The position numbers and the translations under genes were made by a program. From assembly GCA_030679975.1 (NCBI GenBank), contig JAUXSL010000022.1, positions 1 to 54,070 of the forward strand: DNA of 54,070 bases, given 5' to 3'. Under the pieces are notes generated by a model that did not search any database, had not been told where the DNA came from, and saw nothing but the letters and a program-made list of their open reading frames with translations. The first letter of the stretch is position 1. Every line of letters begins with the position of its first letter. Below, piece by piece: positions 5,706 through 42,461 of this stretch. Origin of the DNA: Actinomycetota bacterium. Lineage in GTDB: Bacteria > Actinomycetota > Aquicultoria > CAJVYJ01 > JAUVQD01.

Positions 5706-5714
5706 AAGTCTCTT

Positions 5715-7097: not shown

Positions 7098-7141
7098 AGA
7101 AATCAGAGATCAGAGATCAGAAATCGGGAGTACGGGGGCTT

Positions 7142-7165
7142 GTCATTCCTGCGGAAGCAGGAATC
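7142..7165 (+). repeat. Palindromic hairpin repeat unit, compensatory variant (GTCATTCCTGCGGAAGCAGGAATC)
   Basis: Same unit as at 1961-1986 and 42141-42165, with a paired C>T / G>A change that keeps the 8-bp stem intact. Confidence 0.8.
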
Positions 7166-7192
7166 TATGGAGTCGGAAGGCGGGAGAGGAAA

Positions 7193-9158: not shown

Positions 9159-9160
9159 AG

Positions 9161-20577: not shown

Positions 20578-20673
20578 AATAAACTCCTGCAAAGCGTTCT
20601 GCTCGTATACCGGGTTGCTGGCAAAAGCTCATGAGCCACGTCAACTGTGCATATTCATTGGGAAGGGATCGCT

Positions 20674-21306: not shown

Positions 21307-21388
21307 GGCCATTCTGGCAAAATCGCCACTTCTTTGCCTGCCAAGGAAAGGCGTATTTAGATCTGGCTCTTAGAAATGGAAGGGCCTA

Positions 21389-21451
21389 GCATAACAATAA
21401 AATCCAGCGGATGCTTAAACGCGGCAAAAGCAGCCGCATTTAACCACCGCT
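21389..21451 (+). other. attC site 1, left part (R'' GCATAAC, L'' CCAGCGG, central stem), interrupted by an IS
   Basis: gcataacaataaaatccagcggatgcttaaacgcggcaaaagcagccgcatttaaccaccgct. The continuation gctgatttaaagcgttatct lies at 22657-22676. Confidence 0.8.
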
Positions 21452-22656
<1,205 letters not shown>

Positions 22657-22659
<3 letters not shown>

Positions 22660-22676
22660 GATTTAAAGCGTTATCT
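22657..22676 (+). other. attC site 1, right part (L' GCTGA, R' GTTATCT)
   Basis: gctgatttaaagcgttatct completes the site split at 21451. Compare the intact ccgctgatttaagacgttaggc at 23551-23572. Confidence 0.75.
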
Positions 22677-22878
22677 CAATAAATTTACAGTCGGACGAAA
22701 AGGGCAAGCGCCCGCTCAGTCATGGACGCGGTCGCTAAAATTTAAAGGCATAAGGGCTCGGTGGCCAATTAATAAAGGCTCGTTTCCAATCTAGTTACTC
22801 GGCATCACCTGCTAGTCCGCGCCAGACAGACATGCAATCGTTGCCCTTTTAACCAAGCGTTGTAAAATGAAGGGCGAG

Positions 22879-22958
22879 AGATAACAAGTCACTCCAGCGG
22901 ATTTCTGAAACGGCCAAAAGCATGCCGCCTCAGAAACCGCTGAACTCAAGCGTTATCT
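22879..22958 (+). other. attC site 2
   Basis: R'' AGATAAC is perfectly complementary to R' GTTATCT. L'' TCCAGCGG pairs with L' CCGCTGAA with one extra base. The central stem is imperfect. Confidence 0.85.
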
Positions 22959-22975
22959 CAATAAATAAGGGCAAA

Positions 22976-23020
22976 TTACAACTGGTCGACAGAGCGGCCG
23001 CTGAACAGAAGGCGTTAAGT
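22976..23020 (+). other. Possible degenerate, minimal attC remnant
   Basis: ttacaac..agcgg|ccgctgaacagaaggcgttaagt. The L'-R' half is clear, but the left half is short and weak. Confidence 0.3.
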
Positions 23021-23027
23021 GTATAAT
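23020..23027 (+). promoter_or_regulatory. Candidate -10 element (TGTATAAT) for the hicBA cassette
   Basis: TATAAT at 23022-23027, 24 nt upstream of the hicB ATG. The -35 is weak. Confidence 0.35.
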
Positions 23028-23050
23028 ATAAGTACAAAAAAGGAGGCAGC

Positions 23051-23272
23051 ATGGTACATAGGCTTACAGCAATCATAGAAAAAGAAGACGAAGGCTACGT
23101 GTCCCTCTGTCCTGAGCTAGATATTGCCAGCCAAGGCGATAATGTTGAGCAGGCACGCGATAATTTAAAAGAGGCTTTGCAGTTGTTTTTCGAAACAGCC
23201 TCTCCGCAAGAAATAAAAGAGCGGCTCCACGGGGATGTTTTTGTAACGCAGGTTGAGGTGGCTATTGGGTAA
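23051..23272 (+). CDS. hicB: HicB family antitoxin (UPF0150)
   Basis: 73 aa with the motif YVSLCPELDIASQGDNVEQARDNLKEAL. RBS AGGAGG. Confidence 0.85.
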   Translation: MVHRLTAIIEKEDEGYVSLCPELDIASQGDNVEQARDNLKEALQLFFETASPQEIKERLHGDVFVTQVEVAIG

Positions 23273-23486
23273 TCTGCGGGTTCTTTCAGGAAAAGTAGTA
23301 TGTGTGATCCTGGAAGCACACGGTTTTCTTGAGGTACGAAGGCAAGGAAGTCACATAATCATGCAGAAAAAACTGCCCGATAGCACAATTACTGTGCCCG
23401 TTCCCAATCACCGCGAGATTCGAGTCGGTACATTACAATCGATCATTCGACAGTCCAGCGTCGCCCGAACCGAATTTGAAAAATAA
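23253..23486 (+). CDS. hicA: HicA family mRNA interferase toxin
   Basis: Has ..LEAHGFLEVRRQGSHIIMQK.. and the HicA/YcfA signature. TTG start, overlapping the hicB end. Confidence 0.8.
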   Translation: MRWLLGNLRVLSGKVVCVILEAHGFLEVRRQGSHIIMQKKLPDSTITVPVPNHREIRVGTLQSIIRQSSVARTEFEK

Positions 23487-23492
23487 GTGCAC

Positions 23493-23572
23493 ACATAACA
23501 AGAAAATCCAGCGGATTTTTACCTGCGCCAAAAACATGCCGCCTCAGAAACCGCTGATTTAAGACGTTAGGC
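23493..23572 (+). other. attC site 3
   Basis: R'' ACATAAC, L'' TCCAGCGG, L' CCGCTGA, R' GTTAGGC. The central arms look like a hybrid of the arms of sites 6 and 2. Confidence 0.8.
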
Positions 23573-23594
23573 GTGTAAGGAGCATCAAGAAGTC

Positions 23595-24167
23595 ATGACT
23601 GAAAAAGTCGGGATAGCTGAAATCGCAAAAAGGTTAAAGGTTGATGGTACAACCGTTCGTCGTCTTATTGCGCGGGAGAGCGAGGTGCTTCAATTAGAAT
23701 TACATCGTGGTAAAGGGGATAAGCTGCTTCTTTCTCAGGAAGACGCAGACAAATTAGTCGCTAGCTATGAAGCTCGACGTGGCCCAATTTCAACCGCCGA
23801 AGACGCGATTAAGTTTGATCGTTACGGATATTTCTACATAATTCAACTTGTGCCGGAGGTTCTTCCAAATCGGATCAAGATCGGTTTTGCCGACAATGTG
23901 GAAAAAAGACTTAATGAACATCAAACGTCTGCGCCAACTGCAAGACTTCTGAAGGCATGGCCATGCAAACGATCTTGGGATTATGTGGCGATGGATAGCG
24001 TCACAAGAGATGGGTGCAAGCTGGTCTTAAATGAGGTTTATGAAGGCGATATCGAAGGATTTCTTTCTCGCGGCGATGAATTTTTCTCATTGATGCCAAA
24101 CCCTGATTCCGAGAAACAACTCTCAGAACATTCGCCCCTTTATGAGCCTGGAGGCAATAACGACTAG
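23595..24167 (+). CDS. HTH (MerR/excisionase-like) plus T5orf172/MUG113 (GIY-YIG superfamily) domain protein
   Basis: Has an N-terminal HTH (IAEIAKRLKVDGTTVRRLI) and the core YGYFYIIQL...RIKIGFADNVEKRLNEHQT, typical of T5orf172 domains. Confidence 0.7.
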   Translation: MTEKVGIAEIAKRLKVDGTTVRRLIARESEVLQLELHRGKGDKLLLSQEDADKLVASYEARRGPISTAEDAIKFDRYGYFYIIQLVPEVLPNRIKIGFADNVEKRLNEHQTSAPTARLLKAWPCKRSWDYVAMDSVTRDGCKLVLNEVYEGDIEGFLSRGDEFFSLMPNPDSEKQLSEHSPLYEPGGNND

Positions 24168-24190
24168 CCCGAGTAGGCTATAATATCTAT

Positions 24191-24417
24191 ATGGAAAAAT
24201 ATAAATTTACGCCATACTTTGAAAAAGACCATATCTTAAGAAAGAGCTATGTATTGACGTAGTGGAAAACCCCATAAGGGTTGAATCTCAAGAAAACAAT
24301 CGATTTCGGTTTTGGGGCCAAATAGAAGAGCTTGAAGGCCGGATGCTTCGCGTAGTAACACTTGATGACAAAATTACAATTCACAACGCTTTTTTGGATA
24401 GGAGGTTTAAGCCATGA
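24191..24417 (+). pseudogene. DUF4258-like gene disrupted by a frameshift
   Basis: The N-terminal frame (MEKYKFTPYFEKDH...) stops at 24260-24262. The C-terminal frame is open over 24223-24417 and encodes YLKKELCIDVVENPIRVE..FRFWG..RMLRVVTLDDKITIHNAFLDRRFKP. An A5 run lies at 24222-24226. Confidence 0.6.
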
Positions 24418-24632
24418 AACTAAATTATTACCCCGATACGGATTCTTTGTATATTGACTTGTCTTCTAAAACCAGTGTTGACAGCAAAGAGATTTCGCCT
24501 GGCATTGTCTTGGATTATGACAGCAACGGCGATCTGTCAGGGATTGACATAGACAATGCCAGCAGAAAACTTGACCTCAAAGATATAGTTATCAATCATG
24601 TTCCTGCCGAAGTGCATATCAAGAGCGCCTAA
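24414..24632 (+). CDS. DUF2283 domain protein
   Basis: 72 aa with MKLNYYPDTDSLYIDLS...GIDIDNAS. ATGA overlap with the upstream DUF4258-like frame. Confidence 0.8.
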   Translation: MKLNYYPDTDSLYIDLSSKTSVDSKEISPGIVLDYDSNGDLSGIDIDNASRKLDLKDIVINHVPAEVHIKSA

Positions 24633-24700
24633 CAAGGCGCTCCAGCGGATCGCTACCTCGGCCATTCGCTGGTAGCGACCGCTGAACGTGGGCGTTATGC
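24627..24700 (+). other. attC site 4 (74 bp)
   Basis: R'' GCCTAAC contains the DUF2283 stop codon. It also has L'' TCCAGCGG, a 12-13-bp central stem, L' CCGCTGAA and R' GTTATGC. Nearly identical in architecture to site 7. Confidence 0.88.
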
Positions 24701-24716
24701 GAATTGAACAATTTCA

Positions 24717-24745
24717 TTGACAAGTGTCACGTGACTGCTTACTAT
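24717..24745 (+). promoter_or_regulatory. Cassette-internal promoter with palindromic operator for higBA-1
   Basis: TTGACA (24717-24722), a 17-nt spacer, then TACTAT (24740-24745). The spacer holds the perfect palindrome GTCACGTGAC (24726-24735). The ATG at 24752 lies at the expected transcription start, which implies a leaderless mRNA. Confidence 0.55.
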
Positions 24746-24751
24746 TGACAC

Positions 24752-25051
24752 ATGATCAAGACGTTTGCCGACAGGCATACGCAAGAGTTTTACCAAAACG
24801 GGAAATCAAAGCAGTTTCCACCGGATATCGGTAAGCGAGCAATGCGCAAACTGGAATACATTGATTTGGCCACAGGTTTGAATGACTTGAAGGTTCCTCC
24901 GAGCAATCGACTCCACGAACTTGAACGTGAGAGGAAAGGGCAGTATTCAATTTCGGTCAATGATCAATGGCGCATATGTTTCCGGTTCGTAGACGGTGAC
25001 GCTTACGATGTTCAGCGACGGATTATCACTAAAGAGAGAGGTGCTAGATGA
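24752..25051 (+). CDS. higB: HigB-like toxin (plasmid maintenance system killer family), C-terminus altered by a frameshift
   Basis: MIKTFADRHTQEFY...QWRICFRF.DGDAYDV matches the HigB family. The canonical ...TDYH* ending is present in the +1 frame at 25021-25032. Confidence 0.75.
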   Translation: MIKTFADRHTQEFYQNGKSKQFPPDIGKRAMRKLEYIDLATGLNDLKVPPSNRLHELERERKGQYSISVNDQWRICFRFVDGDAYDVQRRIITKERGAR

Positions 25052-25362
25052 GTATTCAGAATGCTGGAGAGAGGAAGATTCGCCCAACACACCCAGGCGA
25101 GATGCTGCGCGAGGATTTTTTGCCTGATTATGGTCTCACTGTGTCGAGCTTTGCCAAAGCGCTTGGCGTGTCGCGCCAAACGGTCAACGAGTTAGTCCGA
25201 GAGCGTCGAGCAGTCAGCCCCGAGATGGCGCTTCGACTCTCTCGCTTGTTTGGCAATACGCCAGAGTTTTGGCTTAACGCTCAGCGTGCCGTCGATCTTT
25301 GGGAGGCAGCGCGGACGAGCAAGAAGAAGATTGAGCGCATCAATCCATTGAGCGCTGCATAG
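25048..25362 (+). CDS. higA: HigA family antitoxin (HTH_3/VapI)
   Basis: Has HPGEMLREDFL...LAKALGVSRQTVNELV..RRAVSPEMALRLSRLFGNTPEFWLNAQ. Confidence 0.88.
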   Translation: MSIQNAGERKIRPTHPGEMLREDFLPDYGLTVSSFAKALGVSRQTVNELVRERRAVSPEMALRLSRLFGNTPEFWLNAQRAVDLWEAARTSKKKIERINPLSAA

Positions 25363-25393
25363 CGCCGGCGCTTGAAAAATAAGTGCAAAAACC

Positions 25394-25415
25394 GCATAAC
25401 AAGGTGTTCCAGCGG
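25394..25415 (+). other. attC site 5, left half only (truncated)
   Basis: R'' GCATAAC and L'' TTCCAGCGG are present. No L' or R' partner follows. The sequence runs into a toxin gene remnant. Confidence 0.6.
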
Positions 25416-25420
25416 ACATT

Positions 25421-25540
25421 TTGCGCCGGCATCGATCTTCCAGGTTGGGTGACCAATATCGGTTAATTTATAAAGTGGTTTCTCAAGAAGTCATTGTCCT
25501 AGTTGTTGATATAACAGCTCATGACTATCGAAGGAGGTAA
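25421..25540 (+). pseudogene. RelE/ParE-family toxin remnant (C-terminal ~35 codons only)
   Basis: The in-frame sequence ..RLGDQYRLIYKVVSQEVIVLVVDITAHDYRRR* matches the conserved RelE/ParE C-terminus. There is no start codon or N-terminal part. Confidence 0.55.
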
Positions 25541-25541
25541 C

Positions 25542-25808
25542 ATGAATCTCAAGGAATATCGTAAAGCGACGAGGACCGTTGATGTCTCAGTTGGTGAATC
25601 GGTGCGCATTATTCGAGAACTTCAAGGTCTAAGCCAGAATGAACTTTCAAACTTAATCAAGATTCCCCAGTCGACGATTTCCGCAATAGAGAATAATCGA
25701 GTAAATCTTGGGGTTGAGCGCGCGAAAGCCATTGCTCGTGCTCTCAAGTGCCATCCTGCAGTGTTATTGTTTCCGGGTTGGGATATCAATAAAGAATCTG
25801 CAGCTTAA
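25542..25808 (+). CDS. XRE-family HTH protein (probable orphaned antitoxin)
   Basis: Has IRELQGLSQNELSNLIKIPQSTISAIENNR. RBS GGAGG. The start lies 1 nt after the remnant toxin stop. Confidence 0.8.
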   Translation: MNLKEYRKATRTVDVSVGESVRIIRELQGLSQNELSNLIKIPQSTISAIENNRVNLGVERAKAIARALKCHPAVLLFPGWDINKESAA

Positions 25809-25865
25809 TTCAACGTGTTGAGTCGTGTTTGAAGTTCTTAGAAGCAAACAATAATGTGATAAATC

Positions 25866-25944
25866 GCTCAACAAGTCGTTCCAGCGGTGGTTACCTGCGC
25901 CAAAAGCAGGCGCAGGTAACCACCGCTGAACTTTAGCGTTAGGC
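25866..25944 (+). other. attC site 6
   Basis: R'' GCTCAAC, L'' TTCCAGCGG, a 15-bp near-perfect central stem (tggttacctgcgcc/ggcgcaggtaacca), L' CCGCTGAA and R' GTTAGGC. Confidence 0.88.
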
Positions 25945-25955
25945 CAAATTAACAG

Positions 25956-25984
25956 TTGCACGGTATCAGTGAAGATGCTAATCT
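25956..25984 (+). promoter_or_regulatory. Candidate cassette-internal promoter for higBA-2
   Basis: TTGCAC, a 17-nt spacer, then TAATCT. RBS GAGGAA lies upstream of the TTG start at 26003. Confidence 0.4.
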
Positions 25985-26002
25985 TTTCAAGAGGAAACCG
26001 AA

Positions 26003-26293
26003 TTGATAACTTCTTTTGGCGACAAGGCGACTGAAAATTTATATCATGGCCTGACAAGCAAAGAAACCAGAAAATATCCAAACGACCTAATTAAGATAGC
26101 GGTTCGCAAACTTGATATGCTCAATGGTACGCAGGACTTAAAGGATATTCGGTCGCCGCCAGGTAATCAATTAGAAGCATTAAAAGGTAATCTAAAGGGA
26201 TTTTTCAGCATTAGAGTCAATAGCCAATGGCGAATAATTTTCAAATGGGAATCCAAGCAAGCCAAAGAAGTTAAACTGACGGATTATCATTAG
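26003..26293 (+). CDS. higB: HigB-like toxin (plasmid maintenance system killer family)
   Basis: MITSFGDKATENLY...QWRIIFKW....EVKLTDYH*, with an intact canonical C-terminus. Confidence 0.85.
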   Translation: MITSFGDKATENLYHGLTSKETRKYPNDLIKIAVRKLDMLNGTQDLKDIRSPPGNQLEALKGNLKGFFSIRVNSQWRIIFKWESKQAKEVKLTDYH

Positions 26294-26304
26294 CGTTAGG
26301 AGTT

Positions 26305-26595
26305 GTGATGTTGCCGAAAAACAGAGTGCCGACCCATCCAGGGGAGATTTTAAGCGAAGAGTTCTTGGTACCTATGGGCATTACACAAGTGGCTTTAGCA
26401 AAGCATCTGGGTGTTTCGCCACAAAGAATCAATGAGCTTGTTCGTGGGAAAAGGGGTATTACGCCGGAGACCGCATGGCTGCTTTCTCAGGCTTTTGATA
26501 CCACCCCCGAATTCTGGATCAATTTACAATCCGCCTATGATCTTGTGGTCAATCATCCTAAAACAGAAATCACCAAGCTCAAGAATGTTAGCTAG
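26305..26595 (+). CDS. higA: HigA family antitoxin (HTH_3/VapI)
   Basis: Has HPGEILSEEFL...LAKHLGVSPQRINELVRGKRGITPETAWLLSQAFDTTPEFWINLQ. Confidence 0.88.
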   Translation: MMLPKNRVPTHPGEILSEEFLVPMGITQVALAKHLGVSPQRINELVRGKRGITPETAWLLSQAFDTTPEFWINLQSAYDLVVNHPKTEITKLKNVS

Positions 26596-26604
26596 TGGCC
26601 ATGG

Positions 26605-29621: not shown

Positions 29622-30332
29622 ATGTTCTTAAATCGAACCAACAACTCTGTTCTCGCCATTTCCGCCGCTATCGGCGCCGGTCTTATGACCATCGCTTTTC
29701 TTGCCGCCACCAGGGCTTCCGACCGGAGGGCTCTGGAATATCAATTGGCGGCCGCCCGGAACCCGGTTTCGGTTGTGGTGGCGATTCGGAGTATTGCCCC
29801 CGGGACTCTTATAAGCGATGAGGATGTCGGCTACAAACGGGTCCCGAGAGCTTATCTGGCGGCGGGGTTTGTCGGGCATAAAGGCCGCGTTATCGGGAGG
29901 GAAGCGGTGTCGGAAATATTTGCCGGAGAGGCGATTCTGGCAACCAGGGTGACAGGCGCCGCAAGTCGCCGGGCGGCTAACTCGATCAGGGCGGGGTATG
30001 TGGCCCTGGCTGTCGGGACCGACGAGATCGCCGGCGTTGCCGGAGGCGTGCGCGCCGGGGACCGGGTCGACGTATTCGTAACCGATGAGGAGACTCATCG
30101 AACGAGCTTGTTTCTCGGAGACAATCGAGTGCTCGGAATCGGCGGGCTCTATCCTTTCGGCCCTCCACCGGCGGCCGGCCAAGGCGGCGATAATGCAAAC
30201 CAGGCGGTGGTAACCGGTACCACAGTGGTGTTGGAGCTGACGCCGACTCAAGCCGGCAAACTGACGCAAGCAACGGAGATCGGAAAAGTCAGATTGGCCT
30301 TAAGGGCGACTGATCGCGGGACGGACCGATGA
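29622..30332 (+). CDS. cpaB: Flp pilus assembly protein CpaB/RcpC (SAF domain)
   Basis: N-terminal TM segment, a SAF-like segment (VVVAIRSIAPGTLISDEDV) and an RcpC-like C-terminus. Confidence 0.8.
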   Translation: MFLNRTNNSVLAISAAIGAGLMTIAFLAATRASDRRALEYQLAAARNPVSVVVAIRSIAPGTLISDEDVGYKRVPRAYLAAGFVGHKGRVIGREAVSEIFAGEAILATRVTGAASRRAANSIRAGYVALAVGTDEIAGVAGGVRAGDRVDVFVTDEETHRTSLFLGDNRVLGIGGLYPFGPPPAAGQGGDNANQAVVTGTTVVLELTPTQAGKLTQATEIGKVRLALRATDRGTDR

Positions 30333-31519
30333 TGTCGGATTCAACCGAATACTCGATATTTGTCGCCGCCGGGCCACAGGTGCTGGAGTCGATTCTCAAG
30401 CTGGTCGACGGGTCGAAACGCCTTTCGATCGCCGACACCGCGCTCAATGGCGAAGAGTGCCTGGAGAAGTTGGCCGCGGCCGATGCCGGTATAGCTTTCA
30501 TCGATTTCGCGCTGCCGCAAATATCAGGCGTCAAGGTGATCGAATATCTTTCAACCAATCATCCGGAGGTGATATCGGTGCTCCTTTCCGATCGGGTCAA
30601 CCCGGAATATTTTCGCAGCGGGATGTTGGCGGGCGCGCGCGAGTTCATCACACTTCCCGTAACGACGGAGGAGTTGGAATTTGCCGTTGAGCGCGTCGCC
30701 CAGGTGGCGGGAGCGGGTAAAAAAAGCCGGTCTCTGACCCAGACATTTGAAACGCGGCCCCGGCCCGACGCTCGAGTGATAGTGGTCGGTAGCGGAAAAG
30801 GCGGCGTCGGGACTTCGTTTGTCGCGGCGAACCTGGCCAAGCTGATGGCCGATGCCGACCCGGATCTGGATGTGGCCTTAGTCGACCTTAATTGCCGGGC
30901 AAATGATTTAGCGGTAATAGTCAATGTCGAGCCCGGCAAAACTTTGAAGGATTTTGTCCCGGTAATAGCCGATCTCGATCCGGCGCTTATCAGGTCCGTG
31001 GCGCAAAACGTGGCGAAGAAGCTCGCCCTATTCGCTGCTCCGCCTGAAGCGGAGTTGGCGGGGCTTTTCACGGCGGAACAATTGCGTTTGCTGATCGATG
31101 GTTTAAGGAGCTGCTACGACTTCGTGGTCATCGATAGCGGCGCCTATGCTGATAGAGCCGGAGCGAGTCTCCACGAAGCCGCCGATCTGATCATGATCAT
31201 CTTGACCCCGGAAATATTGGCCGTGCGCGGCGGCAAGCGTTTTATTGATTGCCTGGAGCGATTCGGCATCAGCAAAAATAGCATGATGGCGGTTATCAAC
31301 CGCTGGGGGCCGTTGAGTTTGTCGCCGGAGAGGATCGCGGAATATATCGGTGCGCCGGTGATGGAAAAGTTGCCGGAAAGCGACTTAGTCCGCCTGCTTT
31401 TGGACGAAGGGCGACTGCTCCAAGCGGGTGATCGAAGCGAGGTAAAGCATGCCTTCGATCAGCTTATAGCGGCCGTGCGGCAAAAGCTCTCGCTCGGGGA
31501 TGGTATCAGTGTTCACTAG
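30329..31519 (+). CDS. TadZ/CpaE-like pilus assembly ATPase (receiver-like N-domain plus MinD/ParA-type P-loop)
   Basis: Deviant Walker A GSGKGGVGTS with a CheY-like N-terminal fold. Confidence 0.8.
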   Translation: MMSDSTEYSIFVAAGPQVLESILKLVDGSKRLSIADTALNGEECLEKLAAADAGIAFIDFALPQISGVKVIEYLSTNHPEVISVLLSDRVNPEYFRSGMLAGAREFITLPVTTEELEFAVERVAQVAGAGKKSRSLTQTFETRPRPDARVIVVGSGKGGVGTSFVAANLAKLMADADPDLDVALVDLNCRANDLAVIVNVEPGKTLKDFVPVIADLDPALIRSVAQNVAKKLALFAAPPEAELAGLFTAEQLRLLIDGLRSCYDFVVIDSGAYADRAGASLHEAADLIMIILTPEILAVRGGKRFIDCLERFGISKNSMMAVINRWGPLSLSPERIAEYIGAPVMEKLPESDLVRLLLDEGRLLQAGDRSEVKHAFDQLIAAVRQKLSLGDGISVH

Positions 31520-32696
31520 GATCGGCTCACCGGCAACGACTTCGGCCACTAATCTGCCGCCGGGCGCGGTCCGGCAAGTGCGGACACGACTTTACGCCGA
31601 TATGGCGCCGGCGGAGATATTGAGAAGACTAAAAGTCAACGCCGGTCAGGTAAGAAAAGAATTAAGACAAGCGGTTTTGCGGCTGATCGCGGTGGACGGC
31701 TTAGTTCTGAGTCAAACCCAGAAGGACCTTATTCTCAGACGCGTCCTCGATGACGTCCTCGGTTATGGACCGATAGAACCCTTGCTAAGCGACCCGTCTA
31801 TCAGCGAAATCATGATAAACGGACCATATATGGTTTATGCGGAGCGCGATGGTTGCATCGAGCGGACCGATTATGTTTTCGAGGATGCCGACCACCTGAT
31901 GAATGTGATCGATAAGATAATCGCGCCGATCGGACGGCGTGTGGACGAAAGCAGTCCCATGGTAGACGCGCGCTTACCTGATGGTTCGCGGGTCAACATA
32001 GTCGTTCCGCCGGTAGCGTTATCCGGCCCGACAGTGACGATCAGGCGGTTCCGGGCCAAGGTCTTCGACTACGAAGAATTGGTTGACAACGGCACAATCC
32101 CCGCTCAAGCCGCTGAATATCTGGCCGTCGCGGTTACCAACCGAGCGAACATAATCGTGACCGGAGGCACGGGCTCCGGTAAGACTACGCTGCTTAATGC
32201 TATATCAAGCCTTATCCCCGCAAATGAGCGGATAGTTACCATTGAAGATGCCGCCGAACTGAAATTTACCCAACCGCATGTTGTCCGGATGGAAAGCCGC
32301 CCCGCGAACGTCGAAGGCGTCGGCCGCATAGCCATTAGAGACTTGGTTATAAACGCCTTGCGTATGCGTCCGGATAGGATCGTTGTCGGCGAAGTCAGGG
32401 GCGGCGAGGCTCTCGATATGCTCCAGGCAATGAATACCGGGCATGACGGCTCGCTGACGACCGCGCACGCGAATTCGCCAAAGGAAGCTTTGTCCCGCCT
32501 CGAGACCATGACTCTAATGGCCGGGATAGAGCTGCCGATCGCCGCCGTGCGGCAACAGATAACGGGCGCATTTGATCTTATAGTCCACATGGAACGCGAG
32601 GCCTCCGGCCGGCGGCGGGTAACCGCCGTCGATGAATTGCGCGGAATCGTCGACGGGGAGATTGTCTTGGGTTCCATCTACAGGTCAGAGGAGTAA
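31500..32696 (+). CDS. cpaF: CpaF/TadA secretion ATPase (type II/IV secretion NTPase)
   Basis: Has Walker A GGTGSGKTT, the Asp box and Walker B (RIVVGEVRG), and the His box (TGHDGSLTTAHAN). Confidence 0.92.
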   Translation: MVSVFTRIGSPATTSATNLPPGAVRQVRTRLYADMAPAEILRRLKVNAGQVRKELRQAVLRLIAVDGLVLSQTQKDLILRRVLDDVLGYGPIEPLLSDPSISEIMINGPYMVYAERDGCIERTDYVFEDADHLMNVIDKIIAPIGRRVDESSPMVDARLPDGSRVNIVVPPVALSGPTVTIRRFRAKVFDYEELVDNGTIPAQAAEYLAVAVTNRANIIVTGGTGSGKTTLLNAISSLIPANERIVTIEDAAELKFTQPHVVRMESRPANVEGVGRIAIRDLVINALRMRPDRIVVGEVRGGEALDMLQAMNTGHDGSLTTAHANSPKEALSRLETMTLMAGIELPIAAVRQQITGAFDLIVHMEREASGRRRVTAVDELRGIVDGEIVLGSIYRSEE

Positions 32697-32699
32697 AGC

Positions 32700-33635
32700 T
32701 TGGTTTACCTGCTCGCGGTCGGTTCGGCCGCCGCCGTCGGATGTGCAGCCTATTTGACGTGCGGAGGCTTTACGAGCGCGGCCGGTCGAGCCGCCCGCCG
32801 ACTACGGTTTGAAGCCCGCTTGACCGGCGGCAGGCAGGGCAAGGTCCCGGCAGTGATCAAGCGCCTGGCTATAGAGACGGCAATCAAGACGCCCGGCGCC
32901 GCAACGTTGAAAAGGCGCCTCGCGGACGCGGGTATCAGCGCCCCGGAAGCAACCACTTTTTGGTTGACAGTAATGACGCTGCCGTTAACGATCGCTTTAG
33001 CATGGTCGCTTGGCTCAGTCATAAACGCCGCTGTCCTTATCGCGGGCGCCGCCGTGGGCGCTAACGCTTGGCTGAATAAGCGCGCCGGCGACCGCTTGGA
33101 AAAGTTCTCCGAACAACTCCCCGCGGTATTTAAGTCGGTCGCCGCCGCCATCAACGCCGGTTCGTCGATTCAACAAGCGCTGCTTCACGCGTCAGACCAG
33201 ATAGGACCCCCGGCAAAAGAAGAATTGGCCGCGGTCAATGAGCAGATCGCTTTGGGCATGCCGATCGACGAAGCCCTGGACTTGCTCCACCTGCGCATGC
33301 CGGCGATTGAGCTGGACTTCATCCTTCTGGGACTATCCATTCAAAGACGCGTAGGCGGGAATCTAATCAGCTTATTGCGGCAAACCGCTGACGCGATCGA
33401 AGCCAGGGGGCGTTTGCGCGGCAATCTTAAAATTGAGACGGCGCAGGCGCGGCTCTCCGCCACGGTCATCGGCTTCTTACCGCTGTTGGTTATGGGCTTG
33501 ATAGCGATCATAGACCCGGCGTTTATCGCTCCGATGTTTACCACACCGACCGGCCTGGCGATGCTGGCCATAGCTATCGTCGCCGAAACCGCCGGATTCT
33601 TGATTCTGGGGCGGATTTTGGATGTCAAAATATGA
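32700..33635 (+). CDS. tadB: TadB-like type II secretion system F-family membrane protein
   Basis: 311 aa with a T2SSF domain and flanking TM segments, directly after cpaF. Confidence 0.8.
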   Translation: MVYLLAVGSAAAVGCAAYLTCGGFTSAAGRAARRLRFEARLTGGRQGKVPAVIKRLAIETAIKTPGAATLKRRLADAGISAPEATTFWLTVMTLPLTIALAWSLGSVINAAVLIAGAAVGANAWLNKRAGDRLEKFSEQLPAVFKSVAAAINAGSSIQQALLHASDQIGPPAKEELAAVNEQIALGMPIDEALDLLHLRMPAIELDFILLGLSIQRRVGGNLISLLRQTADAIEARGRLRGNLKIETAQARLSATVIGFLPLLVMGLIAIIDPAFIAPMFTTPTGLAMLAIAIVAETAGFLILGRILDVKI

Positions 33636-34507
33636 TGATCGAGCTGATAATCGCGATCATCATCGGCTGCCTGGCAGGCATGGCCGTCTACGAAATAGTC
33701 TTTGTCTTGGCGGCTCGGGAACGCCCGGACCGCAGGCTCCTATTAGACCGGCCGCCCGGCAAAAAAATAAATCAGCCCTTGTATGACATCGGAGCCGGGT
33801 TTATGAGCGGCCTGCCGGCAGGCTGGTCCGGTCTTATGATGCGTTGGTTCGGGACCGGATCGACGGCCAAACTGGCGGCTGCCGGGATGGGCGAGATCGA
33901 CCCGGCGGCGCTTGTCGGGGCGAGGACCATATTGGGGATAGGCGGCTTTTTGGCGGGCTGGGCCGCGTTTGGCGGCGGCCCTACCGGCGTACTTTTCAGC
34001 GGCCTAACGGCTTACGGAAGCCAAAGATGGCCGTTGCGGCAAATAGCCGGGCGGGCGGAAAAAAGGCGACTGGACTTTGCCCGTTTGTTGCCGGATTTTA
34101 TCGATATGTTGGCGATCGGCGTGGAGGCCGGCTTAAGCCTCGATCGCGGCATACATCTCTATTGCGACAGGTTCGACAATCTGTTGACGGAGGTGTTTAC
34201 GGTGGGGTTGACGGAAATCGAATTGGGCAGGCCAAGGCGCTTGGCCTTTCAGGAGTTGGCCGATAGAAATCAGAACGACGATCTGACATGGTTTATAACC
34301 TCAGTCACGCAAGCGGAGAAATTGGGCGCGCCGCTGGCGCGGACCTTAAAAGAACAAGCGAAATCCAGTCGCCGCCGCCAGAGCGAACTTGTAAAAGAAT
34401 TATCCGCGACCGCCCCGATCAAGATGTTGTTTCCAATCGCCGGCTTGATTTTGCCGGCATTGTTCATTGTCATTATGGGACCGGCGTTTTTGCGGTTCAT
34501 GCATTGA
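33632..34507 (+). CDS. tadC: TadC-like type II secretion system F-family membrane protein
   Basis: 291 aa with a T2SSF domain. 4-nt overlap with tadB. Confidence 0.8.
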   Translation: MMIELIIAIIIGCLAGMAVYEIVFVLAARERPDRRLLLDRPPGKKINQPLYDIGAGFMSGLPAGWSGLMMRWFGTGSTAKLAAAGMGEIDPAALVGARTILGIGGFLAGWAAFGGGPTGVLFSGLTAYGSQRWPLRQIAGRAEKRRLDFARLLPDFIDMLAIGVEAGLSLDRGIHLYCDRFDNLLTEVFTVGLTEIELGRPRRLAFQELADRNQNDDLTWFITSVTQAEKLGAPLARTLKEQAKSSRRRQSELVKELSATAPIKMLFPIAGLILPALFIVIMGPAFLRFMH

Positions 34508-34521
34508 AAAGGAGGAAACTG

Positions 34522-34692
34522 GTGAAGCGCATGATGAACGACGAGAGCGGATCGATTTTAACCGAATATGGTTTGTTGCTGGTGATCGTTGCTTTAAGCT
34601 TGATCGCTGTTCTGGGGCTCTTTAGGAATGACCTGATTAAAAAGTTTAACGAGATACGCTTTGAAGTAAACGGCGTCAGCGTCACAAAGTGA
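34522..34692 (+). CDS. flp: Flp family type IVb pilin
   Basis: 56 aa: MKRMMNDESGSILTEYGLLLVIVALSLIAVLG... It has the Flp G/xxxxEY motif followed by a hydrophobic helix. RBS AAAGGAGG lies 7 nt upstream of the GTG. Confidence 0.8.
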   Translation: MKRMMNDESGSILTEYGLLLVIVALSLIAVLGLFRNDLIKKFNEIRFEVNGVSVTK

Positions 34693-35201
34693 TTAATTGG
34701 TCGCGCTGGAAAAGGGTTGCGGTTGTCGGCGCGAGTGTGGTAGCGGGGCTTGGAGCGGTGGTATATCTGGTCGCCCCCGGGCCGGCGCCTGAAGCGCAAC
34801 CGATTGACACTAAAGTCGGACAGGTTAAGTGGGAAAGAACATTGGCTTCAAATACCGACCAACGTTCAAGCGGAAATGAGGGTTTTATCAAGACTCCACC
34901 CCGGACACGGGTTATCAACAGCGTTTCCAAGATCAAGGGGCCGATGAGAGAATCAGTGCTAAAGCTTGAATCTATGCTCTCACCGACTGAGCTACAGGTA
35001 TATTATACGGATTTATTAGTCAAAGACTGGATGATCTCACGGGACGATTTGACGGAAGGCGTCGGGTGGAGCGGCGTTTTTATGCAGATCGAACCGACCG
35101 ATAGGACCATCGGGGTCTTCGCGGTGGTAAAGAGGATCGGTCCCCCCAGCGGCCGGGCAAACCCGACCTCGATATCCATCCTTAAGACAGAGGAACGCTA
35201 G
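34689..35201 (+). CDS. Membrane-anchored hypothetical protein within the tad locus
   Basis: 170 aa with one N-terminal TM segment and no recognisable domain. Translationally coupled on both sides. Confidence 0.55.
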   Translation: MINWSRWKRVAVVGASVVAGLGAVVYLVAPGPAPEAQPIDTKVGQVKWERTLASNTDQRSSGNEGFIKTPPRTRVINSVSKIKGPMRESVLKLESMLSPTELQVYYTDLLVKDWMISRDDLTEGVGWSGVFMQIEPTDRTIGVFAVVKRIGPPSGRANPTSISILKTEER

Positions 35202-35401
35202 TGCCTGCTGATGAATCCGGTTCGACCATCGTCGAGTACGCGATTATCACGGCGGCGATGGTTCTGGTGCTGGTGGCCATTGTCGCTTTGGCTCAGCCGG
35301 ATCTTATCGGCGGCTGGGTGGAAAAGACAAAGCGGTCTTTCTTTGTTTCCGGGCGATTGGACAACTTAGGATCGATCCAGCGGGAGACGCAAGAAAGATG
35401 A
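35201..35401 (+). CDS. Second Flp-like pilin
   Basis: 66 aa: MPADESGSTIVEYAIITAAMVLVLVAIVAL..., with the Flp motif. Confidence 0.7.
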   Translation: MPADESGSTIVEYAIITAAMVLVLVAIVALAQPDLIGGWVEKTKRSFFVSGRLDNLGSIQRETQER

Positions 35402-35808
35402 ATGGTCGCGCCAGAGGGGCGGCCGCTGTCGAACTTGCCATGGCTTTGCCGCTGCTGCTGTTTATGCTCTTTGGGCTGGTCCAAATAATTATTTTGATCG
35501 ATACCAAAACCATATTCGAGCACGCCGCGTTTGAAGCGGCCAGGACAGGCGCTGTTTCGGCTGACCCGCAGACGGCCAAGGGGCGGGCCTTGCGCGTAAT
35601 ACAGGCGGTTCCACGCGGGGCCGGCTTCCGGGGCGATGCCGCTAAGATAACATTAACGGAGGCGGGCGGTTCGATCATCGCCGAAGTAAGCTCGAAGATA
35701 GCGCTACTGCCGTTTTTTCGACAGGCCTCTTTGGCTGCCGGAGGGGACGGGGCCTTGACATTGAGAGCCAGAGCCAAACTAAAGAAAGAGCCTTTCCTTG
35801 GCTATTAA
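35398..35808 (+). CDS. tadE: TadE-like pseudopilin
   Basis: The N-terminus RGAAAVELAMALPLLLFMLFG is the TadE/G-like signature. Confidence 0.75.
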   Translation: MNGRARGAAAVELAMALPLLLFMLFGLVQIIILIDTKTIFEHAAFEAARTGAVSADPQTAKGRALRVIQAVPRGAGFRGDAAKITLTEAGGSIIAEVSSKIALLPFFRQASLAAGGDGALTLRARAKLKKEPFLGY

Positions 35809-37060
35809 AGGCATGGGCCGTGATGAAGCTGGTTCGACCATGCCCTTAGTTGTCGGGTTTGTCTTATTAGTCGTTTTCTTGACCTGTGCTGTCCTGGCGA
35901 CGGCTGAGATGGCGGGCGAGAGGGCTCGGCAACAAAGCAATGCCGATCTCGGAGCCTTGGCCGGCGCCAACGCTCTGTCTAAAGCGACCGACACGATCCG
36001 GTTGATTGACGGCGCTATCTATACGCGTAACGTCAGCCTGGATGTGATGTATCTGGCGGCCACGGCGGTCTCGATCGCCAGCGCCGGAACGGGCGCTGAA
36101 GCTTTCGAGGTACCGGCCCGGTGGCAAAAAGCGACCGAGGAGCCGGTGGCGGCGCTGGAAAAGACGAAGACCGTTATCGGCGAGACCGCGGTGGTTTACA
36201 CCATTGCCAACGGGGCGAGCATAATTAAGGCCAATGGGAACGATTCCGGTCTGGCGCTTCCCGTGCCGTTGATCGCCGGGTTCCAGGGACCAAGTCAAGC
36301 GCGGAAGGACCTAAAAAAAGAGGTTGATGTCTACAATGCGCGGATAAAGATCTCGACCGGGCAGATGTTTGAGGTTATGCAAGCTTACAGGGAGAAAATG
36401 GGCGAGTTAAAAGCCAAGGGATTAAGCGATGAGGAGATAAAGAACCACGACGAGATCAAAAAGCGATTAAACCAAGTCAGGGAGTCAACCGGCCGGGTCG
36501 GGGGGCTGACGAGCCAACGAAATCGACATCAAAAAGAGCTGGCGGCGCTGGACAAAAAGAGCGGGGTTTTTGCCGGCGGTCAAACCGGGGTGGTAGCGGT
36601 CGTCTATCATCGGAGCAGCCCTATTCCGTTTACAAAGCCGTTCGGCGGACTGGAAACCGGAGATAATCTGGCGGTGGCGGCAGCCAGGGTCGAGGACGGG
36701 CCGGGCGAGGCGACTATAGGCGAGGAAGCCCTGGCAAATCTCTTGACCGGGGCGCATCTGCCCGCCTCTGTCGCGAGCGGCGCGAACTGGATGATGGAGT
36801 CGCTTAATCTAGTCGGCGGAAGAATCCGGAACTTGAGGAACGACTACGGACCGATCGGCGGCTATTTAGAAGAAGCGCTGGACGCGCTTGGTTTGACGCC
36901 GCCGCCGTTGACGGAGACGCGTCCGACCTTGGCCAGTGTCGATTCAGTCCTCACTGACGGCAGTAAGCTTTACGCCACAATGAAACAAGCGGCAGCCCTG
37001 GCCAAGACTTTGGAGGCAAAACTTGGGATCGATATCCTGCCGCCGGGCTGGGCTCTTTAG
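35798..37060 (+). CDS. TadG-like (Tad_N) pilus assembly protein with central coiled coil
   Basis: The N-terminus DEAGSTMPLVVGFVLLVVFL..ADLGALAGA resembles the pilus-assembly TadG N-terminal domain. 420 aa. Confidence 0.6.
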   Translation: MAIKGMGRDEAGSTMPLVVGFVLLVVFLTCAVLATAEMAGERARQQSNADLGALAGANALSKATDTIRLIDGAIYTRNVSLDVMYLAATAVSIASAGTGAEAFEVPARWQKATEEPVAALEKTKTVIGETAVVYTIANGASIIKANGNDSGLALPVPLIAGFQGPSQARKDLKKEVDVYNARIKISTGQMFEVMQAYREKMGELKAKGLSDEEIKNHDEIKKRLNQVRESTGRVGGLTSQRNRHQKELAALDKKSGVFAGGQTGVVAVVYHRSSPIPFTKPFGGLETGDNLAVAAARVEDGPGEATIGEEALANLLTGAHLPASVASGANWMMESLNLVGGRIRNLRNDYGPIGGYLEEALDALGLTPPPLTETRPTLASVDSVLTDGSKLYATMKQAAALAKTLEAKLGIDILPPGWAL

Positions 37061-37529
37061 AAGTCCGGCCAAAAATCCCTCAGGCCGGTCACAATTGGAC
37101 CGCGCTTCTAGAGCCGACGAGCGAGGTATCGCCTTGACCGAACTGGTGATAACCGCGCCGCTGATACTGTTTATCTTGGTAGCGGTCTTTTCACTGGCCG
37201 AAGCCGGTCGGAAGAAGGCCTTAGTGGTTCGGGCCGCGGGCGCGGCGGCTCGGGTAGCTGTGGTGCGGCCCGACTTGGCGCCGGCAGAGGCACTCGATGT
37301 CTTAAAGGCTTCCGATTCCCGCATTAAGACCGCGGATGTAAAGACTACTATCGCCGCCGCGAATATCTCTCGATTGCCTTTTTCCAATCCAACGCGGGTG
37401 ACGGTCACCCTTAAGTATCATCCGATAACCGGCTTTGGCTGGCGCCCCGTCTTTAACTTAAAGTCTGAATTTGTCTTAGACCGCTGGGTCAACGGCGTCT
37501 GGTTCGATATTCCAGAGGCTCCTAAATAA
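37023..37529 (+). CDS. TadE-like protein (start uncertain)
   Basis: DERGIALTELVITAPLILFILVAVF is a TadE-like N-terminus. GGAGG lies 6 nt upstream of the TTG at 37023. An alternative in-frame TTG lies at 37095. Confidence 0.6.
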   Translation: MGSISCRRAGLFRSPAKNPSGRSQLDRASRADERGIALTELVITAPLILFILVAVFSLAEAGRKKALVVRAAGAAARVAVVRPDLAPAEALDVLKASDSRIKTADVKTTIAAANISRLPFSNPTRVTVTLKYHPITGFGWRPVFNLKSEFVLDRWVNGVWFDIPEAPK

Positions 37530-40623: not shown

Positions 40624-40652
40624 TTGACAATGGCTTCCGCTGCGTGTTATCT
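40624..40652 (+). promoter_or_regulatory. Candidate promoter upstream of the SAM riboswitch
   Basis: TTGACA, a 17-nt spacer, then TTATCT. Confidence 0.45.
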
Positions 40653-40672
40653 TGACGGAAATTTAATAGCTT

Positions 40673-40838
40673 TTCTCATCAAGAGCGGCAGAGGGACTGG
40701 CCCTGTGAAGCCCGACAACCGGTTTTTGAAAAAAGACTTGGTGTCAATTCCAGCCCGCGAGGGAATCGTGGGAGAGATGAGTGCAAAGTCGCATAATTAG
40801 ACTTCGGCCTCTTTCTCTCATGGGAAGAGGCGTTTTTT
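40673..40838 (+). promoter_or_regulatory. SAM-I (S-box) riboswitch with intrinsic terminator expression platform
   Basis: ttCTCATCaAGAGcGGCaGAGGGAcTGGCCCtgtGAAGCCcGaCAACC....GGTGtCAATTCCagc...aGAGATGAG matches S-box conserved blocks. The terminator GCCTCTT...AAGAGGC plus T6 lies at 40807-40838. Confidence 0.85.
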
Positions 40839-40855
40839 AGTTGCAAAGGAAGTAA

Positions 40856-42082
40856 ATGGCATATATCAAAGGTTTAAGATGCCGGGAATGCGGCCGTGAG
40901 TATCCGATCGAACCAGTGCATGTCTGCGAGTTTTGTTTTGGACCGCTTGAGGTGGTTTATGACTACGAGGCGATCGCGGCGGTTGTCAGCCGCGAGAAGA
41001 TCACTAGTGGGCCGCCTACGATTTGGAGATACGCTGAGTTATTGCCGTGCAGCCCCGGCGCCGAGCGAGTCGACCTCGGGTCGGGGTTCACCCCTTTAGT
41101 CAAGGCTGACAACCTGGGTAAGGCCCTGGGCCTGAAAAGGCTATATCTAAAAAACGATACGCTCAACCCGACTTATTCATTTAAAGATAGAGTAGTCTCC
41201 GTGGCGCTGACTCGCGCTAAGGAATTTGGTTTTAATATAGTGGCCTGCGCATCCACGGGAAATCTGGCAAATTCAGTAGCGGCCCATGCCGCTAAAGCGG
41301 GTATGGCGGCCTATGTCTTTATCCCCGCCGACCTGGAAAAAGGGAAAGTCTTGACGACCGCGGTCTATGGGCCGAACCTGGTGGCCGTGGACGGCAATTA
41401 CGATGAGGTCAACCGCTTATGCGCGGAGATCGCCGGCGAATATCCTTGGGCGTTTGTCAATGTCAATATTCGCCCGTACTATGCCGAGGGCTCCAAAACC
41501 ATCGCGTTCGAAACCGCCGAGCAGCTTGATTGGCGGGCGCCCGACCACGTAGTTGTGCCTATCGCCTCCGGCTCGCTTTTGACTAAAATCAAGAAAGGTT
41601 TCAATGAGATGATAAAAGTCGGGTTGATCGAAGCCCGGTCGACAAAAATATCGGGGGCTCAGGCTTTGGGTTGCGCGCCGGTAGCGACTGCCTTTGAGGC
41701 GGGCGTCGACATAATCAAACCGGTCAAGCCGAAGACCATTGCAAAATCCCTGGCCATCGGTAACCCCGCCGACGGTTACTACGCCTTGAAGGCCGTGAAT
41801 GAGACCGGCGGCGCGATAACAACGGCTGACGACGACGAGATAGTCGAAGCAATTAAGTTGTTAGCGGAAAACGAGGGGATATTTACCGAAACAGCGGGCG
41901 GGGTAACAGTGGCGGTGCTGAAAAAGCTGGTTGAATCGGGTAAGATAAAGCCTGATGAATTGACGGTCGCCTACATCACGGGGCTTGGCCTAAAGACGCT
42001 GGAGGCGCTGGAGGGCAAAGTCGGGCCGAAGGCGACGATCAGTGCGAACTTAGACGATTTTCAGCAAGCGTTTGGGCTGTAG
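40856..42082 (+). CDS. Threonine synthase family PLP enzyme with N-terminal Cys4 zinc ribbon (ThrC paralog, candidate sulfur-transfer enzyme)
   Basis: CRECG..17 aa..CEFCFG ribbon, PLP-lysine motif YSFKDR, and a glycine-rich loop. Preceded by the SAM riboswitch. Confidence 0.8.
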   Translation: MAYIKGLRCRECGREYPIEPVHVCEFCFGPLEVVYDYEAIAAVVSREKITSGPPTIWRYAELLPCSPGAERVDLGSGFTPLVKADNLGKALGLKRLYLKNDTLNPTYSFKDRVVSVALTRAKEFGFNIVACASTGNLANSVAAHAAKAGMAAYVFIPADLEKGKVLTTAVYGPNLVAVDGNYDEVNRLCAEIAGEYPWAFVNVNIRPYYAEGSKTIAFETAEQLDWRAPDHVVVPIASGSLLTKIKKGFNEMIKVGLIEARSTKISGAQALGCAPVATAFEAGVDIIKPVKPKTIAKSLAIGNPADGYYALKAVNETGGAITTADDDEIVEAIKLLAENEGIFTETAGGVTVAVLKKLVESGKIKPDELTVAYITGLGLKTLEALEGKVGPKATISANLDDFQQAFGL

Positions 42083-42105
42083 AATATCATGCCCGCGCCG
42101 GAGGG

Positions 42106-42166
42106 CTCAAAGTGTCATTCCCGAGCCGGGGGTTTAAAGTGTCATTCCCGCGGAAGCGGGAATCTA
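42106..42166 (+). repeat. Palindromic hairpin repeat: half unit plus full unit (GTGTCATTCCCGCGGAAGCGGGAATCT)
   Basis: aaagtgtcattcccg occurs twice (42109-42123 and 42136-42150). The second copy continues into the full 8-bp stem with a GGAA loop. Confidence 0.8.
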
Positions 42167-42182
42167 CTAAAAAGGAGCGAGA

Positions 42183-42461
42183 GTGTCAGTAAGAGTCAGA
42201 ATACCGTCACCGTTGAGGAGCTTGACCGAAGGTGAAGGTGAAGTTGAGGCTGAAGGTGCGAGTGTGCGAGAGATGATAACCGATCTGGAAGCTAAATATC
42301 CGGGGATACAAGAGCGTCTATGCGACGCGAACGGCGACGTTCGCCGTTTTGTCAACATATTTGTCGGCCAGGAAGACATCCGTTTCCTCGGCGGCCTGGA
42401 TACCCTCATAGAAGAAGGCGCCGAAGTTTCGATAATCCCGGCCATCGCCGGTGGCGCATAG
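42183..42461 (+). CDS. ThiS/MoaD family ubiquitin-like sulfur carrier protein, C-terminus ...AGGA
   Basis: 92 aa, beta-grasp type sequence (VNIFVGQEDIRFL..L..GAEVSIIPAIAGGA). The Gly-Gly is followed by one extra Ala. Confidence 0.8.
   Translation: MSVRVRIPSPLRSLTEGEGEVEAEGASVREMITDLEAKYPGIQERLCDANGDVRRFVNIFVGQEDIRFLGGLDTLIEEGAEVSIIPAIAGGA

Follow-up and report, generated by a model that had tools for sequence, protein, structure and literature searches.

A SAM-I riboswitch upstream of a MetM/MetO-like gene pair, a probable route to homocysteine, in an uncultured groundwater actinomycete

The window analysed here is the whole 54,070-nt stretch of contig JAUXSL010000022.1 (GenBank assembly GCA_030679975.1), covering 54 kb of the genome of an uncultured actinomycete. 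At positions 40,624 to 42,461, on the plus strand, an S-adenosylmethionine (SAM)-I riboswitch precedes two genes, the first encoding a pyridoxal phosphate (PLP) enzyme of the threonine synthase (ThrC) family and the second a small sulfur carrier of the ThiS/MoaD type. We consider it probable, with good confidence, that they form a two-gene module of the MetM/MetO kind, in which homocysteine would be made from a protein thiocarboxylate and expression would be repressed by SAM through a SAM-I termination riboswitch. An initial annotation of this DNA, made from its letters alone, had proposed that the operon encodes such a direct sulfuration route; the leader, a clade-wide signature in the enzyme, the linkage to a carrier, the recurrence of SAM-I and the existence of full operons in related genomes all support that proposal at the level of sequence.

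The same annotation had pointed to a ThrC homolog and carrier pair from Streptomyces that makes homocysteine. That precedent is correct (bioRxiv 10.1101/2024.10.14.618325; PMC12172450). In S. albulus, the proteins MetM, MetO, Mec and MoeZ convert O-phosphohomoserine to homocysteine via a thiocarboxylated carrier (Hasebe et al. 2024, Appl Environ Microbiol 90:e01247-24, as cited in bioRxiv 10.1101/2024.10.14.618325), and a SAM riboswitch lies upstream of metM (PMC12172450).

Results

A SAM-I leader with a predicted termination platform

A promoter-like site at 40624..40653 (+) combines a −35 TTGACA, an 18-nt spacer and an extended −10 TG-TATCTT, agreeing with the consensus at 10/12 positions in a consensus scan. 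Both TTGACA and TG-n-TAT are conserved in relatives whose enzymes are 75-93% identical to that of the window. The SAM-I (S-box) aptamer, with helices P1-P4, lies at 40673..40783 (+) and matches Rfam RF00162 over the entire model (positions 1-108 of 108), with 85.4 bits against a gathering score of 44.4 (E = 7.4e-19). It is followed by an intrinsic terminator at 40807..40838 (+), identified by a terminator scan, in which a 10-bp stem with a 5-nt loop (40807-40831) runs into GTTTTTT. The S-box leader with terminator that had initially been read at 40673-40838 is thereby upheld, and the cmsearch with RF00162 proposed alongside it gives a pass on the SAM-I model.

An antiterminator is predicted at 40766..40823 (+), where the 3' strands of P4 and P1 would pair with the 5' arm and loop of the terminator. 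The predicted fold of 40765-40845 has an energy of −27.0 kcal/mol, compared with −17.0 kcal/mol for the terminator segment alone. The predicted antiterminator overlaps the 5' arm of the terminator, an arrangement typical of transcription-termination switches that SAM turns off, and both halves of an expression platform that would couple P1 to gene expression, the terminator and its competitor, are predicted. The SAM-I core is invariant across five related leaders. In five relatives, 95.9% of the terminator stem cells are paired, with compensatory changes at 2 pairs, and the SAM-I core, promoter hexamers and terminator are kept in all close relatives. Judged by its sequence, the leader is a bona fide SAM-I off-switch that would act by transcription termination through a predicted platform.

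A ThrC-family enzyme with its own residue signature

The first gene (40856..42082, +) encodes a MetM-like ThrC-family PLP enzyme of 408 aa (Pfam PALP, 2e-72). The N-terminal Cys4 ribbon and the YSFKDR lysine motif noticed at the outset are both in place: a zinc ribbon, a NinF-type Pfam match, covers residues 8-32 (nt 40880-40936) with cysteines C9, C12, C24 and C27, and the Schiff-base Lys110 (nt 41183-41185) sits in NPTYSFKDR. The best solved relatives are threonine synthases, and identity to solved bacterial ThrCs, compared through PDB entries 2ZSJ, 1UIM, 6CGQ and 2D1F, is 38-41%. An AlphaFold model built with 12 sequences reached a pLDDT of 74.5, falling below 50 in the clade-specific loop 203-213. 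A fold search with the enzyme model returned ThrC, and its matches included PDB 2C2B, a plant ThrC. The predicted model confirms the ThrC fold and is uninformative on carrier docking.

We aligned 78 clade members (the window protein and 77 from related loci) with five solved ThrCs. The Gly-Met that follows Lys-Asp-Arg in canonical ThrC is Val113-Val114 in the clade (window numbering), and the canonical residues at Thermus ThrC T88, S155, N157, R160 and Q164 are replaced by Leu137, Asn204, Arg206, Tyr209 and Ser213, respectively. A Ser-Trp pair of canonical ThrC has become Asp306-Gly307. The window protein carries the complete set (V113, V114, L137, N204, R206, Y209, S213, S238, D306 and G307) and so lacks the canonical ThrC active-site signature. 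Leucine at the T88 position, arginine at N157 and tyrosine at R160 occur in 78/78 clade members; VV for GM and N for S155 occur in 99-100% and S for Q164 in 97%. All five solved ThrCs retain the canonical residues (KDR-GM, STGN-T, N-S-x-N-P-x-R-x-EGQ). In these alignments, MetM-like proteins can be told apart from true ThrC by VV, L, N, R and Y in place of GM, T, S, N and R.

The Cys4 ribbon was considered as a discriminator of MetM and rejected. Three of the four ribbon cysteines are lost in homologs from Amycolatopsis (7001-8197 of locus L081, which has no adjacent carrier) and Microcystis (4354-5574 of L042), and in Verrucomicrobiota homologs Asp replaces the fourth Cys; L-numbers here and below are labels of related loci compared with the window. 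Conversely, an acidobacterial locus (L077, ~8230-9587) has a ThrC paralog directly downstream of the MetM-like gene, at the carrier's usual place, and this paralog combines a canonical signature (SFKDLGM, STGDT, NSLRLEGQ) with a Cys4 ribbon of its own.

A sulfur carrier with a residue beyond Gly-Gly

The second gene (42183..42461, +) encodes a MetO/CysO-like ThiS/MoaD carrier of 92 aa (Pfam ThiS PF02597, 2.4e-14). It begins with GTG, preceded by AAGGAG, exactly 100 nt past the stop codon of the enzyme gene, in agreement with the first description of a 92-aa beta-grasp protein about 100 nt downstream and ending in IPAIAGGA. Its closest solved relatives are M. tuberculosis CysO (3DWG chain C; 2.8e-22, 52% identity) and the carrier chain of 4N6E. 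The Microcystis metO-like protein likewise shares 52% identity with it, and it scores just under the cutoffs of the NCBIfam SAMP1 and archaeal MoaD models.

Within the C-terminal IPAIAGGA, Gly90-Gly91 (nt 42450-42455) is followed by a single Ala92 (nt 42456-42458). The Gly-Gly-Ala tail is kept in relatives whose enzymes are 93, 92 and 79% identical, and the relative at 75% ends in plain Gly-Gly. The Ala is thus a trait kept within one sub-lineage and no artefact of assembly, and its conservation after Gly-Gly means that processing would be required before adenylation. Residues beyond Gly-Gly were present in 14/64 complete related carriers, and these extended carriers were enriched at loci with a JAMM gene (4/14 vs. 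2/50; Fisher p = 0.018). One related carrier (L047, 3326-3856) continues into a NIL domain, giving a ThiS-NIL fusion; in other contexts, NIL domains go with methionine transport or with the homocysteine route that involves DUF39.

The intercistronic spacer (42083..42182, +), in which AAGGAG serves as the ribosome-binding site before the GTG, holds a directly repeated unit of 21 nt (42103-42123, 42130-42150) as well as a REP-like palindrome, ATTCCCGC-GGAA-GCGGGAAT, at 42144-42163. Read as an element between the two genes (window 42103-42163), this is GTGTCATTCCCGC-GGAA-GCGGGAAT plus a 21-nt half-copy. The element recurs in intergenic DNA of the window at 1963-2008 and 7145-7164, once inverted and once with compensatory stem changes; one copy lies in the spacer of L082, and three copies are found in a Dehalococcoidia genome (L037). 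Because the spacer varies among close relatives, the REP-like element resembles a short inserted mobile sequence more than it does a conserved regulator. Spacers between enzyme and carrier measured 350-580 nt in L003, L016, L029-L031 and L036-L038 (Chloroflexota, Dehalococcoidia), compared with 15-170 nt elsewhere.

Conserved linkage and two genomic layouts

The related-locus set comprised 80 loci, one genome per species, with homologs 56-67% identical to the window enzyme, from Actinomycetota, Cyanobacteria, Chloroflexota, Verrucomicrobiota, Nitrospirota, Acidobacteriota and other phyla. A CysO-like carrier lay just downstream on the same strand in 65/80 loci, or 65/76 when only loci with enough downstream sequence are counted, and this adjacency spans at least eight phyla. 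Unbiased clustering of all flanking open reading frames (ORFs) across the 80 loci revealed no second broadly conserved neighbour.

A SAM-I riboswitch stood directly upstream of the homolog in 38/80 loci, a count that merges 17 Rfam matches with 21 loci matched by the core motif only. The regular expression for the core was specific, yet missed 11 riboswitches that Rfam picked up afterwards; Rfam calls were used in place of a covariance model of our own, for which the MAFFT riboswitch alignment was too poor in the variable stems. The remaining 42 loci were Rfam-negative for SAM-I upstream, and neither other SAM riboswitch classes nor T-boxes reached the gathering score in them. Elsewhere in the 80 loci (~900 kb), no SAM element was found. 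By phylum, the riboswitch was present in 31/34 in Actinomycetota including Acidimicrobiia, 4/5 in Verrucomicrobiota, 0/14 in Cyanobacteria and 0/4 in Nitrospirota. The three-part arrangement of riboswitch, enzyme and carrier recurs in many unrelated genomes and is far beyond chance.

A second layout, without the riboswitch, was found in Nitrospirota, Caldimicrobium and some Chloroflexota, where the order is cysK-like gene, E1, MetM-like gene, carrier, E1, JAMM. These full-operon loci add to the pair a ThiF/MoeB E1, a Prok-JAB peptidase and a cysK-like gene, and one of their E1 proteins is fused to a rhodanese, like MoeZ. An E1 and a JAMM gene adjoin the pair in 6-9 related loci. The system accordingly has two layouts, a SAM-regulated two-gene module, which would depend on E1 and JAMM genes at other sites in the genome, and a self-contained cysK-E1-metM-metO-E1-JAMM operon with no riboswitch.

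Two further observations concern individual loci. In four Nitrospirota loci (L002, L005, L010 and L014, ~5200-10200), two ThiF-type E1 paralogs flank the MetM-like gene and carrier; a cysK-like gene is present in each, JAMM in 3/4 and the riboswitch in none. A locus from Anaerolineae (L006, 5418-5517) gave an Rfam PYLIS_3 match of 42.6 bits against a gathering score of 38, which is probably due to chance.

Lineage, close relatives and the rest of the window

The best named matches of the neighbouring LepA, at ~70-72% identity, come from metagenome-assembled genomes of Actinomycetota, including Ca. Aquicultor and Aquicultorales, and the sequencing runs that contain the sequence are groundwater and sediment DNA metagenomes only. 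In metagenomic relatives (enzyme identity 75-93%), the position of the pair is unchanged, upstream of lepA-hemW-hrcA-dnaJ; some of them have one small extra ORF between carrier and lepA, and the upstream side is variable. In the window, the pair is flanked by htpX and lepA, with no biosynthetic cluster around it, and the 54 kb contain neither a second thrC nor a further methionine gene.

Besides the carrier of the pair, the window encodes a MoaD-MoaE fusion (ThiS and MoaE domains; 19385-20065, −) with the internal junction PPMSGG|SGLV, conserved in L087 and L088. A MoaD-MoaE fusion in Deinococcus is cut by the JAMM protease DRJAMM (PMC8832034), and the fusion in the window probably needs cleavage after Gly-Gly too. 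Taken with the capped carrier, this precedent suggests that a Gly-Gly-specific peptidase is probably needed twice in this genome.

Window positions 20647-26600 possibly form a mobile island. A transposase of the IS110 family (21556-22602) here precedes a run of small ORFs that match no family, apart from one weak T5orf172 match (23595-24167), and in the relative L087 the MoaD-MoaE gene adjoins DJ-1/PfpI without this stretch. A Tad/Flp pilus cluster occupies 29622-37529, with RcpC/CpaB, a TadZ-like ATPase, a T2SSE ATPase, two T2SSF and TadE/G-like proteins. It is partly conserved in L083 and is followed in the window by an Ig-domain L,D-transpeptidase.

Discussion

Homocysteine or threonine?

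Several observations weigh against a homocysteine route. The enzyme exceeds NCBIfam equivalog cutoffs for threonine synthase, scoring 306.4 against 167.1 for TIGR00260 and 307.6 against 303 for NF006050 (thrC). Its orthology to S. albulus MetM is by triangulation through Microcystis, the window enzyme being 60% identical to a Microcystis ortholog whose counterpart in M. aeruginosa is 51.6% identical to MetM, with a neighbour 47% identical to MetO (PMC12172450); a profile search from actinomycete orthologs returned no Streptomyces protein among the best 120 matches listed. The Microcystis 'ThrC', the one member of the clade outside Streptomyces with published biochemistry, was reported to act as a threonine synthase and threonine deaminase in vitro, and it did not raise methionine in vivo (PMC12172450). 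Among the genes of the 54-kb window, all annotated with Pfam, there was no ThiF-type E1 and no JAMM protease. The initial annotation had likewise placed the activating E1 and the Ala-removing protease outside the window. 

In Thermus ThrC, T88, S155 and R160 are assigned to the substrate phosphate site, where the retained phosphate would steer water to C-beta. If these roles are right, what the clade has remodelled is the very region on which threonine synthesis by ThrC depends.

The enzyme might be a real, possibly bifunctional threonine synthase, with the riboswitch tuning how O-phosphohomoserine is split between threonine and methionine. The equivalog scores, the ThrC fold, the lysine and many PLP-site residues shared with ThrC, the in vitro kinetics of a Microcystis clade member (PMC12172450), and a window in which no second thrC was found are all compatible with this, but we judge it unlikely. 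The canonical signature residues are replaced clade-wide, and the clade coexists with a canonical-signature ThrC, adjacent in L077 and present in Microcystis as a separate ThrC2 (PMC12172450). The Microcystis protein reported to be active has, moreover, lost ribbon cysteines. A conserved link to a sulfur carrier would serve no purpose in threonine synthesis. A SAM-off switch fits a methionine gene, which argues against a threonine synthase role: it would cut threonine when methionine is plentiful, the opposite of the known logic in plants, where ThrC is activated by SAM. As to the profile scores, TIGR00260 and NF006050 probably extend to MetM-type proteins as well. In two large searches, all homologs that had a name were labelled threonine synthase; the authors of GapMind 2026 state that MetM "is often misannotated" in this way (bioRxiv 10.1101/2024.10.14.618325).

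A combined role is conceivable, and we regard it as improbable. The MetM-like protein would be the sole ThrC-family enzyme of a small-genome anaerobic lineage, making homocysteine with charged carrier and threonine when the carrier is uncharged or Ala-capped. The balance would be set by the SAM riboswitch and by a single JAMM peptidase that also matures the MoaD-MoaE fusion.

Two other explanations place the carrier elsewhere. The pair might make cysteine from O-phosphoserine, like CysO/CysM, or supply sulfur to a secondary metabolite, as in 4N6E, which we take to be the thiosugar BexX/CysO complex of Amycolatopsis orientalis. The carrier's nearest solved relatives, CysO and the 4N6E chain, point this way, as does the cysK-like gene of several related operons. 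Yet the partner belongs to the ThrC family and not to CysM/CysK, regulation is by SAM, the end-product of methionine metabolism, and the neighbours htpX and lepA are housekeeping genes and no biosynthetic cluster. In loci that have a cysK-like gene, this gene is separate and stands beside the ThrC homolog, which indicates two different reactions sharing one carrier. We therefore find a cysteine or secondary-metabolite role very improbable. Least of all do we expect that the adjacency is incidental, with a carrier for molybdopterin, tRNA thiolation or ubiquitin-like tagging merely co-transcribed with the enzyme. ThiS/MoaD carriers are multifunctional, MoeZR serving both CysO and MoaD (PMC3227635), and this one comes close to, though just below, the SAMP1 and archaeal MoaD cutoffs; but a dedicated MoaD-MoaE fusion for molybdopterin is already encoded in the window, and we exclude incidental adjacency in practice because the carrier adjoins the enzyme in so many loci and phyla.

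A proposed mechanism

For the preferred thiocarboxylate route to homocysteine, the parts list and its conservation were computed here, and the chemistry is modelled on the S. albulus work and on CysO/CysM. At low SAM, the antiterminator would form and both genes would be transcribed. The carrier would be made as a Gly-Gly-Ala precursor, from which a JAMM/Mec-type peptidase, assumed to be encoded elsewhere in the genome, would trim the Ala; the terminal Ala would mimic the amino-acid adduct that such a peptidase normally cleaves. A MoeZ/ThiF-type E1, also assumed to be encoded elsewhere, would adenylate the exposed Gly-Gly and convert it to a thiocarboxylate. The enzyme would bind O-phosphohomoserine on PLP, eliminate phosphate and accept the carrier thiocarboxylate at C-gamma, in place of the addition of water at C-beta by ThrC. 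An S-to-N acyl shift would follow, and the JAMM peptidase that trims the carrier would then free homocysteine, to be methylated to methionine.

What the pair adds

The pathway has been published, together with its riboswitch and its broad occurrence, and the route is already included in GapMind (bioRxiv 10.1101/2024.10.14.618325), so that the kind of system is known. The novelty first attached to this locus was for that reason overrated. Our results do not overturn current understanding. They add a clade signature, two genomic layouts, a Gly-Gly-Ala tail that a deep lineage of actinomycetes has conserved, and a co-occurring MoaD-MoaE fusion. Carriers that keep Gly-Gly-Ala through a lineage point to a processing step. 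A MetM-like call also changes the routine annotation "threonine synthase". With all named homologs carrying that label, pathway reconstructions for uncultured groundwater actinomycetes would miss the homocysteine route, and methionine auxotrophy might be wrongly predicted.

Comparison with known systems

Judging from its sequence, the system operates in the manner of MetM/MetO and is most likely an instance of it. As in S. albulus, a ThrC-homologous PLP enzyme is paired with a ThiS/MoaD carrier, a SAM riboswitch stands upstream of the enzyme gene, and the pair needs, here presumably, partners that can be encoded elsewhere, namely Mec (a JAMM hydrolase) and MoeZ (an E1). It differs in its host, a deep-branching groundwater actinomycete, and in the extra Ala after Gly-Gly of the carrier.

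The Wolinella succinogenes system HcyS/HcyD/HcyF/MetY also uses a protein thiocarboxylate as sulfur donor for homocysteine (Krishnamoorthy and Begley 2011, cited in PMC5764234 and PMC6225789). There, however, the C-S bond is formed on O-acetylhomoserine by MetY, a fold type I enzyme, whereas the partner here is of the ThrC family (fold type II) and presumably acts on O-phosphohomoserine; a MetY-type partner (O-acetylhomoserine sulfhydrylase, of the Cys/Met-metabolism fold type I) is not what the carrier adjoins. A capped carrier would be common to both systems, in that HcyS is reportedly translated with an extra C-terminal Ala that the JAMM-type HcyD removes.

The CysO/CysM/Mec/MoeZ system of M. 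tuberculosis shares the carrier type, at 52% identity to CysO, and the use of O-phospho amino acid substrates. The same chemistry would be expected, with the thiocarboxylate attacking an aminoacrylate-type intermediate bound to PLP before an acyl shift and JAMM hydrolysis, but CysM acts on O-phosphoserine to give cysteine and has no SAM riboswitch. In some relatives of the window locus, a single carrier has a cysK-like gene as well as a MetM-like gene next to it. Canonical ThrC, in turn, shares with the window enzyme the fold, the SFKD Schiff-base lysine motif and probably the substrate, at 38-41% identity. The window clade departs from it in the replacement of GM by VV, T88 by L, S155 by N, N157 by R, R160 by Y, Q164 by S and SW by DG, and in its added Cys4 ribbon, its linkage to a sulfur carrier and its regulation by SAM.

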